A stretch of DNA of 64,000 bases from Escherichia coli O157:H7 (GTDB taxonomy: Bacteria; Pseudomonadota; Gammaproteobacteria; Enterobacterales; Enterobacteriaceae). Location of the stretch: NCBI RefSeq assembly GCF_013167455.1, contig NZ_CP038328.1. One strand, written 5' to 3'. A program made the position numbers and the translations under genes. Positions 16,786 through 60,637 of the stretch are shown here, one piece after another. The number at the start of each line of letters is the position of its first letter. Within the stretch, counting starts at the first letter, position 1. Below the pieces are notes generated by a model that was not told the origin of the DNA, made no database searches, and saw only the letters and a list, made by a program, of their open reading frames with translations.

Positions 16786-17577
16786 ATGGCTAACGCAGAT
16801 CTGGATAAACAGCCTGATTCTGTATCTTCCGTGCTAAAAGTTTTTGGCATTTTGCAGGCGCTGGGTGAAGAGCGCGAAATAGGGATAACCGAGCTGTCGC
16901 AGCGCGTCATGATGTCAAAAAGCACCGTTTATCGCTTTTTACAGACCATGAAAACCTTAGGTTATGTGGCGCAGGAAGGGGAGTCGGAGAAATATTCCCT
17001 GACCCTGAAATTGTTTGAACTGGGCGCTCGCGCGTTACAAAACGTCGATTTAATTCGTAGCGCAGATATCCAGATGCGTGAGATCTCCCGCCTGACCAAA
17101 GAAACTATCCACCTCGGCGCACTGGACGAAGACAGTATTGTTTACATTCACAAAATTGACTCTATGTACAATTTGCGCATGTATTCACGGATTGGGCGTC
17201 GTAATCCACTGTACAGCACCGCGATTGGTAAGGTACTGCTGGCATGGCGCGATCGCGATGAAGTGAAGCAAATTCTTGAGGGCGTGGAGTATAAACGCAG
17301 TACCGAGCGGACCATCACCAGTACAGAAGCGTTATTACCGGTTCTGGACCAGGTGCGCGAGCAGGGGTATGGCGAAGATAACGAAGAGCAGGAAGAAGGG
17401 CTGCGATGCATTGCGGTTCCGGTATTTGATCGCTTTGGCGTGGTCATTGCCGGTTTGAGCATCTCCTTCCCGACGTTGCGTTTCTCTGAAGAGCGTTTAC
17501 AGGAATATGTCGCAATGTTGCATACCGCAGCGCGCAAAATTTCTGCCCAAATGGGTTATCACGACTATCCGTTCTGA
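16786..17577 (+). CDS. kdgR: IclR-family transcriptional repressor KdgR
   Basis: 263 aa; N-terminal helix-turn-helix (ITELSQRVMMSKSTVYRFLQTM) and IclR effector domain. Confidence 0.9.
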   Translation: MANADLDKQPDSVSSVLKVFGILQALGEEREIGITELSQRVMMSKSTVYRFLQTMKTLGYVAQEGESEKYSLTLKLFELGARALQNVDLIRSADIQMREISRLTKETIHLGALDEDSIVYIHKIDSMYNLRMYSRIGRRNPLYSTAIGKVLLAWRDRDEVKQILEGVEYKRSTERTITSTEALLPVLDQVREQGYGEDNEEQEEGLRCIAVPVFDRFGVVIAGLSISFPTLRFSEERLQEYVAMLHTAARKISAQMGYHDYPF

Positions 17578-17624: not shown

Positions 17625-17720
17625 AGCATGAGAAAAATAAAGTTGAAGGTGGCGTTAGATTAAACGCAGTTGATATAAGAATATTTTACTCATGAGTGAG
17701 AATCTGGTTATTTATTACAC

Positions 17721-17960
17721 TTAACCATTATCGACCACGATATTGCTTTTGCGTAACAGCGGGCAATCTGTTATCCCCAAAAAACCACTTTTAGTGTGCA
17801 AGTATTGTACCGTGCTGGTGCCTCTGGCAGTCAGATAGGTACATTGCAAACCTAATTCTGCGGCATTCTCTTTGCTTCCAATCAAAACGCCATATCCGCT
17901 GAGTAATAATCCTATCCATACCAGTGCTATCAGCATAACTGTGCGAATGATGAATCGCAT
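17721..17960 (-). CDS. yobH: Small membrane protein YobH
   Basis: 79 aa with N-terminal signal/TM segment. Confidence 0.75.
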   Translation of the reverse strand: MRFIIRTVMLIALVWIGLLLSGYGVLIGSKENAAELGLQCTYLTARGTSTVQYLHTKSGFLGITDCPLLRKSNIVVDNG

Positions 17961-18119
17961 TACAACCTCTTCTCTTTTTTATGTTCGCTTAATCGTAGCG
18001 GCAATATGCGCTGAAGCAAGCGACTCATTCCGAAAAAGCACGAATATCGACATAGTTAGACGCTGTTTAACTAACGCATGGTAGTTTAATGACATAAGGT
18101 AGGTGAAACGGAGATTGGA

Positions 18120-18263
18120 GTGAAAAAGTTTCGATGGGTCGTTTTGGTTGTCGTGGTGTTGGCTTGCTTGCTGCTTTGGGCGCAGGTATTCAACATGATG
18201 TGCGATCAGGATGTACAATTTTTCAGCGGAATTTGTGCCATTAACCAGTTTATCCCGTGGTGA
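18120..18263 (+). CDS. mgrB: PhoQ-inhibiting small membrane protein MgrB (47 aa, GTG start)
   Basis: Not in ORF track (<60 aa); read directly: [51 protein letters not shown] Shine-Dalgarno upstream. Confidence 0.9.
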
Positions 18264-18337
18264 TATCATTTTTTCAGCACTAGATTTTCTTCCTCTCCAG
18301 CAGTGGTAGAATAGCGCCTCTACTCAGAGGTGGTGAA

Positions 18338-18625
18338 ATGAACGAAGTTGTAAATTCAGGCGTGATGAACATTGCGTCTTTGGTTGTATCGGTGGTGGTT
18401 CTTCTTATCGGGCTCATCTTGTGGTTTTTTATTAATCGTGCCAGTTCTCGGACTAACGAACAGATTGAACTGCTTGAGGCGTTGCTGGATCAGCAAAAAC
18501 GTCAAAATGCACTGTTACGTCGTTTGTGCGAAGCAAACGAACCAGAGAAAGCAGATAAAAAGACTATTGAGAGTCAAAAATCGGTTGAAGACGAAGATAT
18601 TATTCGCCTGGTCGCCGAACGATAA
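18338..18625 (+). CDS. yebO: Small membrane protein YebO
   Basis: 95 aa with one N-terminal TM helix and a charged C-terminal tail. Confidence 0.8.
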   Translation: MNEVVNSGVMNIASLVVSVVVLLIGLILWFFINRASSRTNEQIELLEALLDQQKRQNALLRRLCEANEPEKADKKTIESQKSVEDEDIIRLVAER

Positions 18626-19293
18626 TCCTTCCTCAATCTTGAGTAACCCCGTCGTTGAAGGGTTACTCAATTCATCCTGATTATACGCACTGTCATGGTG
18701 CAACTGCTTCAAATTAAAACTCTGGTCTGACTTCAAATAATTATCATATTATTTATTTGCGTAACGGGATATCAGAAAAAGATATTTACCCCATTAATTT
18801 ATTAGGATGTTTACATCGGATTTGTGATTAAGCGTGGTATTATTTATTAGCGAAACGTTTCTCTCTTGATTTTTTTTGCTTATTCATCAATTTTTCTTAT
18901 TTTAAATTTCCAATTCCTTTGGGATTGACTTCTCTTTGGGGTGATTGAGAGCCGTTAACTGCCTGTTTTATGAGAAAAAGTGATATAACTTTTTATTCAT
19001 TGCATAGCAGAAAATGTGATATTGCACGCACTATGTAATAACTTCTCCCACTGACCTGGAACAACTGAACTTATTGAACTATGTTAGAAACTACGTCAGT
19101 TTAAGTATCTGCGGAACTGACAAGGTTAAGCACAATGATATATCGGCGCGTATTCCGTTGCATAAGTGTGCAAAAAAAGTGGAAGACGTATCGAGATTTG
19201 TGCGTCTGATCGAGACATGTTTAAAAATGGCTTGCCATAATTAACGTTGTATGTGATAACAGATTTCGGGTTAAACGAGGTACAGTTCTGTTT

Positions 19294-21432: not shown

Positions 21433-21626
21433 CTTAACATATTTTGAGAATATAAAACAACTGTTGGAATATATTATTTTATTGCTTTGTTGATAACGAT
21501 TTTCATTTAGATTTATATATCAATGAAACGTTATAATAAATAACAAATAAGGGAAGAGGTAATATAGCCTAAGCTATGTCTGATTATTAAAAATACACTA
21601 AACATAGCTTTGGCTAAATTAATAAC

Positions 21627-24838: not shown

Positions 24839-25300
24839 TTGCTACCTCCTTTATTATCGTTAACACCTCAACGTGCCAGATGTATTTTTGAATCGTCGTC
24901 CACAATCGAATCGATTCAGATAAGGGCTACAACCAAAAACCCCTGCGTTTCGCGATTTATTTTAGATATCGAAAAAATTATTTTATGTGATGAAGATCCG
25001 TAATTTAACTTTCGATTAGCAGAAATTTCGAAAGGTAAAATATCCTTGTCACATTCGTTTGCAAAGGAAGGTAAATCTTTGCCAAATCAGAGGCGTCTCT
25101 GATATGTTTAACTCCCGTTTAACAATCATGGAGTATAGGGCAGTAGCCCGCAGTATGGATCGTCACCGACGTCATTTCAGCATCAGGCCTTTTAACGCCT
25201 GCCTTTCTGGCACTCTATGCCGCACCTTTCGTTTGCATTTTGTCGTTACGCCTGCATTATTTCTGGCGTCGAATAGCTATTCCTTAAGCAGGAGCTTGTC

Positions 25301-60202: not shown

Positions 60203-60637
60203 GGTATGCCGTCCTTTCGTTTTTTAGCACAGGTTAAGAGCCGTTCATATGAATAGTAGAGGCTCCCGGAAGAGGTAAACTGAACGACGTCTCTTGCTAA
60301 AACACAGCAACTCTCATGCCATTTTATCGACGATGAGAACAACGTGCCCGGTGATACACCTTCAAAATTAAGCGTAGATGGCAAATGGAAAACTTGCCTA
60401 CACGGCTTTCTTAATTTCAATGGCATATCAACAACTCATCCATAAATTTTGCATAATTAATGTAAAGACCAGGCTCGCCAGTAACGCTAAATTCATTTGG
60501 CTGTAAGCGCGGTGTCATCCGCGTCAGGAAAATTAAACAGTTACTTTAAAAAATGAAAACGTAAAAAGGTTGGGTTTCGATGTATTGACGGGTAAACTTT
60601 GTCGCCCGCTAAACATTTGTTTAAGGAATGATTAATT

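Follow-up and report, generated by a model that had tools for sequence, protein, structure and literature searches.

A degenerate PhoP box in 11-bp register, 12 nt before the -10 hexamer, probably directs transcription of mgrB in Escherichia coli O157:H7

MgrB is an inhibitor of PhoQ, and its gene is a textbook PhoP target whose promoter, PmgrB, is in wide use as a PhoP/PhoQ reporter. The closest described system is the same gene in Salmonella, there called yobG (Lippa and Goulian, 2009). Its promoter has been footprinted and S1-mapped, and consists of a direct PhoP box, ACAGTTACTCCTGGTTTAA, placed 12 nt before a -10 hexamer TAATTT; +1 follows this -10 at a distance of 5 nt, and the leader is 26 nt long (Zwir et al., 2012, PMC3335776). 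A second box, GTTTTTAGGAATGATTCAC, lies in reverse orientation at -62, which assigns the promoter to architecture II, and the transcript was seen in the wild type at low Mg2+ only (Zwir et al., 2012, PMC3335776). Promoters with the box 12 nt from the -10 are treated as class II, with PhoP-P contacting sigma and, at mgtA, a dispensable alpha-CTD; the sigma contact of this type was demonstrated for mgtA only (Zwir et al., 2012, PMC3335776). The architecture I promoters (mgtA, phoP, yrbL, slyB, and yoaE) likewise carry a direct box 12 nt before the -10, in place of a -35, and are class II. Their boxes have two good half-sites, whereas that of mgrB has a degenerate upstream half, xAGTTA.

In E. 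coli, a PmgrB-yfp fusion is PhoP-regulated and brighter than any other PhoP reporter, and MgrB exerts feedback on PhoQ (Lippa and Goulian, 2009). PhoP-P gel-shifts the E. coli mgrB promoter, which served as a positive control in Shi et al. (2021). The PhoP box of E. coli mgrBp is credited, where it is mentioned in PMC8355897 and PMC2789325, to Kato et al. (1999) and Minagawa et al. (2003); a position for it is not given in Harari (2010), in Perez (2009) or in two recent papers on E. coli.

We examined this promoter in a window of 64,000 nt from E. coli O157:H7 (NZ_CP038328.1). Positions 17700-18700 matched O157-like E. coli chromosomes at 100%, and among 5,426 complete genomes of E. coli, 5,423 contained this segment. 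The local genes are as follows.

yebQ, minus strand, a neighbor in the local gene order
16786-17577, plus strand, kdgR
17721-17960, minus strand, yobH, divergent from mgrB
18120-18263, plus strand, mgrB, 47 aa with a GTG start, identified from the open reading frame list and from the RefSeq name 'PhoP/PhoQ regulator MgrB' in identical genomes
18338-18625, plus strand, yebO

An initial annotation of this DNA had proposed an mgrB promoter under PhoP control, and locus identity, conservation among orthologues and the published gel shift, footprint and reporter work all agree with this. It had built the promoter from two PhoP-like half-sites, TGTTTA (18064-18069) and AGTTTA (18083-18088), followed by TAAGGT (18095-18100) as a -10. 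All three hexamers are present at these positions, the first two 19 bp apart from start to start. The arrangement that we favor instead, with a probability of about 0.93, is a single PhoP-dependent sigma-70 promoter with its box at 18053-18069, its -10 at 18082-18087 and its start at A18094. Its elements, with percentages taken over 112 orthologous promoters, are listed here.

18053-18069, plus strand, proximal PhoP box TAGTTA-GACGC-TGTTTA, at -41 to -25, a direct repeat in 11-bp register
18079-18080, plus strand, probable extended -10 TG at -15/-14 (T 97%, G 98% conserved)
18082-18087, plus strand, -10 hexamer TAGTTT at -12 to -7, exactly 12 nt after the box and ending 6 nt before the start
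18094, plus strand, transcription start +1 A, mapped from K-12 to the window (A 86% conserved)
18094-18119, plus strand, 26-nt 5' leader, holding TAAGGT (18095-18100, +2 to +7) and GGAG (18110-18113)
18110-18113, plus strand, Shine-Dalgarno GGAG of mgrB (96-100% conserved)

The start site comes from K-12, where it was placed at 1906816 on the minus strand from 46 reads, with a 5'UTR of 26 nt and without low-Mg2+ induction (Kim et al., 2012, PMC3415461 Table S1). The '-50 + TSS' 51-mer given there for mgrB is ATATCGACATAGTTAGGCGCTGTTTAACTAACGCATGCTAGTTTAATGACA, ending in ...TAGTTTAATGACA, and when K-12 was mapped onto the window its final A fell at 18094, equivalent to NC_000913.3 1908792. Between positions 18000 and 18125 the K-12 promoter differs from the window by two SNPs only, at 18060 (A/G, in the box spacer) and at 18081 (G/C, the n of TGn); both are at non-conserved positions, the start is the same, and no functional difference is expected. 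The spacing of 6 nt from the -10 to the start is within the 5-7 nt of architectures I and II, and the S1-mapped +1 of Salmonella, a C, is equivalent to 18093, one base before A18094. No second mgrB start, and none for K. pneumoniae mgrB, was found among the rows listed from the Kim et al. (2012) supplement (PMC3415461 Table S1).

Since TAAGGT lies inside this transcript, it cannot be the -10 as which it had been annotated. A scan with the sigma-70 consensus gave no promoter upstream of mgrB, as expected of an activator-dependent promoter that lacks a -35.

Comparison with Salmonella yobG supports the upstream half of the box. The gene and its intergenic region are orthologous in the two organisms, and the boxes, ACAGTTACTCCTGGTTTA in Salmonella and ATAGTTAGACGCTGTTTA in the window, align column by column, as was also seen for the DNase-footprinted ACAGTTACTCCTGGTTTAA in the rows of the 112-promoter alignment, where the -10 hexamers share columns too. 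Both promoters have 12 nt to the -10 (TAATTT vs. TAGTTT), a leader of about 26 nt and a homologous reverse box that is 15/19 identical. They differ at 18064, which is T in E. coli and not G, and at four positions of the distal box, where the changes leave both half-sites weaker in E. coli. Within the proximal box the downstream half, TGTTTA, is perfect, and the upstream half, TAGTTA, is degenerate (xAGTTA, submotif S2 of Zwir et al.). The footprinted Salmonella box has the same degenerate S2 pattern, and the gap of 12 nt (18070-18081), the direct orientation and the location over the -35 position are those of the promoter-proximal boxes of architectures I and II. From homology to Salmonella, conservation and geometry we infer that the E. 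coli box is at 18053-18069. Because TGTTTA has this partner upstream at 11 bp, the non-canonical 19-bp spacing of the initial annotation does not exist. The degeneracy of the upstream half explains how the box was missed there, as it is by strict-consensus searches, and likely also why mgrB is absent from screens of that kind. One such screen, in Shigella, recovered yoaE, phoP, mgtA, and yrbL, and mgrB is absent from the whole main text of that report (Lin et al., 2018, PMC5775216).

Conservation of the promoter was then measured across the family. Orthologues were found by scanning a one-genome-per-species collection with a degenerate nucleotide pattern that encodes CDQDVQFF, a motif of MgrB, and from each one the 160 nt before the start codon were taken. 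Two false hits (Parachlamydiales L089 and Pseudoalteromonas L102) and one frameshifted sequence (L113) were dropped, and the alignment then held 112 distinct promoters, which represent about 30 genera of Enterobacteriaceae. In the upstream half of the box G18055 and A18058 were conserved in 100%, T18056 in 97% and T18057 in 85% of these. In the downstream half GTTTA (18065-18069) was invariant in 112/112, which upholds the reading of TGTTTA as a true PhoP half-site, and position 18064 held G (72%) more often than T (22%). In the raw, unaligned sequences a [T/C]AnnnT hexamer followed GTTTA at exactly 12 nt in 111 of the 112 promoters, and TG stood at -3/-2 of that hexamer in 108 of the 111. The presence of TG at -15/-14 in nearly every promoter suggests that the -10 is of the extended type. 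This would fit a promoter without a -35; we noticed no mention of this element of mgrB in the literature examined.

The same alignment bears on AGTTTA, which overlaps the -10 hexamer. Here T18082 (92%), A18083 (100%), and T18087 (100%) are kept; at 18084-18086 and 18088 the E. coli base is found in just 13-30% of the promoters. Most genera have TAACCT or TAATTT as the hexamer, and the commonest sequence at 18083-18088 is AACCTG, part of TAACCT. A half-site NGTTTA at the +19 offset was found in two promoters only, both from Escherichia (the window and Escherichia sp. E1V33). The conservation at 18083-18088 is, judged from these sequences, the signature of a -10 element and not that of a PhoP half-site.

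The arrangement first annotated would have PhoP on TGTTTA and AGTTTA, 19 bp apart, with RNA polymerase using TAAGGT as the -10. AGTTTA is indeed a half-site with one mismatch, and it is uncommon for two NGTTTA hexamers to lie on one strand no more than 30 nt apart, with five such pairs in the window. However, the mapped start A18094 is upstream of TAAGGT, a hexamer whose bases are each conserved in 38-69% and which is found intact in 3/112 orthologues, and the position of AGTTTA keeps T-A-n-n-n-T, the -10 signature. In addition, a spacing of 19 bp does not fit the phase of the 11-bp PhoP repeat. We regard this arrangement as extremely improbable. The odd spacing is a misreading, in which the sole perfect half-site was paired with a T-rich -10 look-alike; the pair is slightly out of the ordinary, since it combines a real PhoP half-site with a -10 element.

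As AGTTTA occurs in the two Escherichia sequences alone among the 112 orthologues, a variant limited to this genus was also weighed. Here the -10, TAGTTT(A), would have drifted into a weak extra PhoP half-site, and high PhoP-P would block access to the -10 in part and put a ceiling on mgrB expression, a lineage-specific brake within the MgrB negative-feedback loop. Boxes that overlap the -10 are predicted to be repressive, for example at ugtL (Zwir et al., 2012, PMC3335776). However, AGTTTA stands alone, as neither side offers a second half-site at 11 bp (-2.64 bits for CTAACGCATGGTAGTTTAA, the PWM frame described below), and its helical phase is not that of the main box. PmgrB is also reported to be the strongest PhoP reporter (Lippa and Goulian, 2009), and a T-rich -10 simply accounts for the likeness. 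We consider such a brake very unlikely.

To return to the single PhoP-dependent promoter, the weight of motif matches was set against chance. The hexamer [T/G/A]GTTTA occurs 124 times on both strands of the window, about once per kb per strand, so a single PhoP-like hexamer is at chance level and carries no weight; same-strand pairs of it no more than 30 nt apart number five. A search for KGTTTA-N5-KGTTTA with up to two mismatches recovered TAGTTAGACGCTGTTTA at 18053-18069, both mismatches falling in the upstream half, among 33 matches in the window (16.9 expected). By itself the pattern match is no proof of a box; that comes from where it lies, how well it is conserved and what published mapping shows.

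A PWM was also built from 24 other activating footprinted boxes of Salmonella (Table 1 of Zwir et al.), with yobG excluded. It discriminates poorly and was used solely to compare alternative registers. The canonical 19-mer at 18052-18070 scored 8.77 bits, the best site in an activating position, yet it ranks 58th among the 19-mers of the window and is outscored by, among others, the T-rich 17975-17993. The other registers scored -2.09 bits (18063-18081, TGTTTA as first half), -2.64 bits (18071-18089, CTAACGCATGGTAGTTTAA, AGTTTA as second half), and -12.52 bits (18082-18100, AGTTTA as first half). Comparison with footprinted boxes, through this PWM and Salmonella yobG, lends no support to the frames that use AGTTTA and points to the upstream TAGTTA as partner. 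Of the initial annotation, TGTTTA is retained; the Salmonella footprint places the upstream half-site elsewhere, and the E. coli start does the same for the -10.

Further upstream, the counterpart of the reverse box of Salmonella adjoins the promoter of the divergent yobH gene.

18020-18038, minus strand, candidate distal PhoP box CTTTTTCGGAATGAGTCGC, reverse orientation, centred at about -65
17984-18019, minus strand, yobH promoter, with -35 TTGCTT (18019 to 18014), a 16-nt spacer and -10 TACGAT (17997 to 17992)

The distal element is 15/19 identical to GTTTTTAGGAATGATTCAC, and within it ATTC (18027-18030) and AAA (18033-18035) are conserved in 94-100% of the 112 orthologues. Its half-sites, TTTTTC and GAGTCG, are both weaker than those of Salmonella, and it adjoins the yobH -35. 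The yobH start of K-12 rests on 2 reads only, with a 51-mer that ends in TTGCTTCAGCGCATATTGCCGCTACGATTAAGCGA (Kim et al., 2012, PMC3415461 Table S1), and maps to about 17984/17985 of the window. In the yobH promoter TTG (18017-18019) is conserved in 96-99%, and TAnnnT (17997/17996/17992) in 84-89%.

This start, together with the conserved TTG and TAnnnT, would allow the whole conserved block at 18012-18038 to belong to the yobH promoter and not to a second PhoP box of mgrB. However, the counterpart of 18020-18038 was footprinted by PhoP in Salmonella (PMC3335776), both functions can overlap, and yobH of Salmonella is apparently not PhoP-regulated (PMC6726612). We hold this attribution to be possible but doubtful; it concerns the distal element alone and is compatible with the promoter proposed for mgrB.

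Relative to yobH the distal box is direct and lies 23 nt upstream of the yobH -10, a geometry like that of rstA. That it makes yobH PhoP-dependent was considered and rejected, given the apparent lack of PhoP regulation of yobH in Salmonella (PMC6726612).

A further PhoP promoter in the window lies upstream of yoaL and yoaE, the latter encoding a CNNM/CorC-type cation transport protein.

25105-25146, plus strand, yoaL-yoaE PhoP promoter, with TGTTTA-ACTCC-CGTTTA (25105-25121), 12 nt and TATAGG (25134-25139), upstream of the yoaL start at 25155

The K-12 start of yoaL-yoaE, 1899764 with 34 reads (Kim et al., 2012, PMC3415461), falls at G25146 of the window. This is a textbook architecture I promoter and is already known; for Shigella flexneri, PhoP binding to the identical site has been demonstrated by gel shift and DNase footprinting (Lin et al., 2018, PMC5775216).

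Two other PhoP-like boxes with one mismatch were seen. One, TGTTTAGTGTATTTTTA, lies at 21588-21604 on the minus strand in the gap that separates yobD from the mntP leader. The start of mntP, on the same strand, follows about 390 nt downstream. This box has the top PWM score of the window (14.9 bits); it may be due to chance in AT-rich DNA. The other, TGTTTAAGGAATGATTA (60618-60634, plus strand), overlaps the translation start of mipA (at about 60632). It is not in the position of an activating site and is probably a chance match.

In the mechanism that we propose for mgrB, PhoP-P would bind TAGTTA-N5-TGTTTA (18053-18069) as a head-to-tail dimer, presumably with contacts to E. coli DNA like those at the Salmonella box. 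The box would stand in for the -35 hexamer, its distance of 12 nt to the -10 TAGTTT being one turn of the helix. Given this location over the -35 position, PhoP would act as a class II activator and recruit RNA polymerase to a promoter without a usable -35, probably through contact with sigma, by analogy with mgtA. The extended -10 TG (18079-18080) may reinforce TAGTTT, and the weaker reverse box (18020-18038) may boost activation, as in architecture II of Salmonella. Transcription from A18094 would give the 26-nt leader with its Shine-Dalgarno GGAG and GTG start, followed by the 47 codons of mgrB, and MgrB would then inhibit PhoQ and close the negative feedback loop.

The start codon is itself well kept, being GTG in nearly all of about 115 Enterobacteriaceae orthologues and preceded by an invariant or near-invariant GGAG. 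Such strict keeping of a weak start suggests that the translation rate of MgrB, as a feedback inhibitor, is tuned. A few Pluralibacter-like orthologues encode an MgrB with one extra N-terminal codon.

Downstream, yebO has a K-12 start of its own (1906591, 32 reads, 19-nt leader; Kim et al., 2012, PMC3415461 Table S1), which sits behind an extended -10, TGGTAGAAT, at about 18305-18313, directly after the mgrB stop. A simple scan of the mgrB-yebO spacer (18264-18337) found no intrinsic terminator, and it is therefore possible that transcription from PmgrB runs on into yebO.

The mgrB promoter is already known, and we found no departure from the known system here. The main value of this analysis is corrective, and it carries little weight as discovery. 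What the footprint over 112 species adds is a compact picture of the promoter, with an invariant GTTTA, a fixed 12-nt gap, a near-universal TG, and a conserved GTG. For isolates resistant to colistin or trimethoprim, this could aid the annotation of mutations in the mgrB promoter and of IS insertions.
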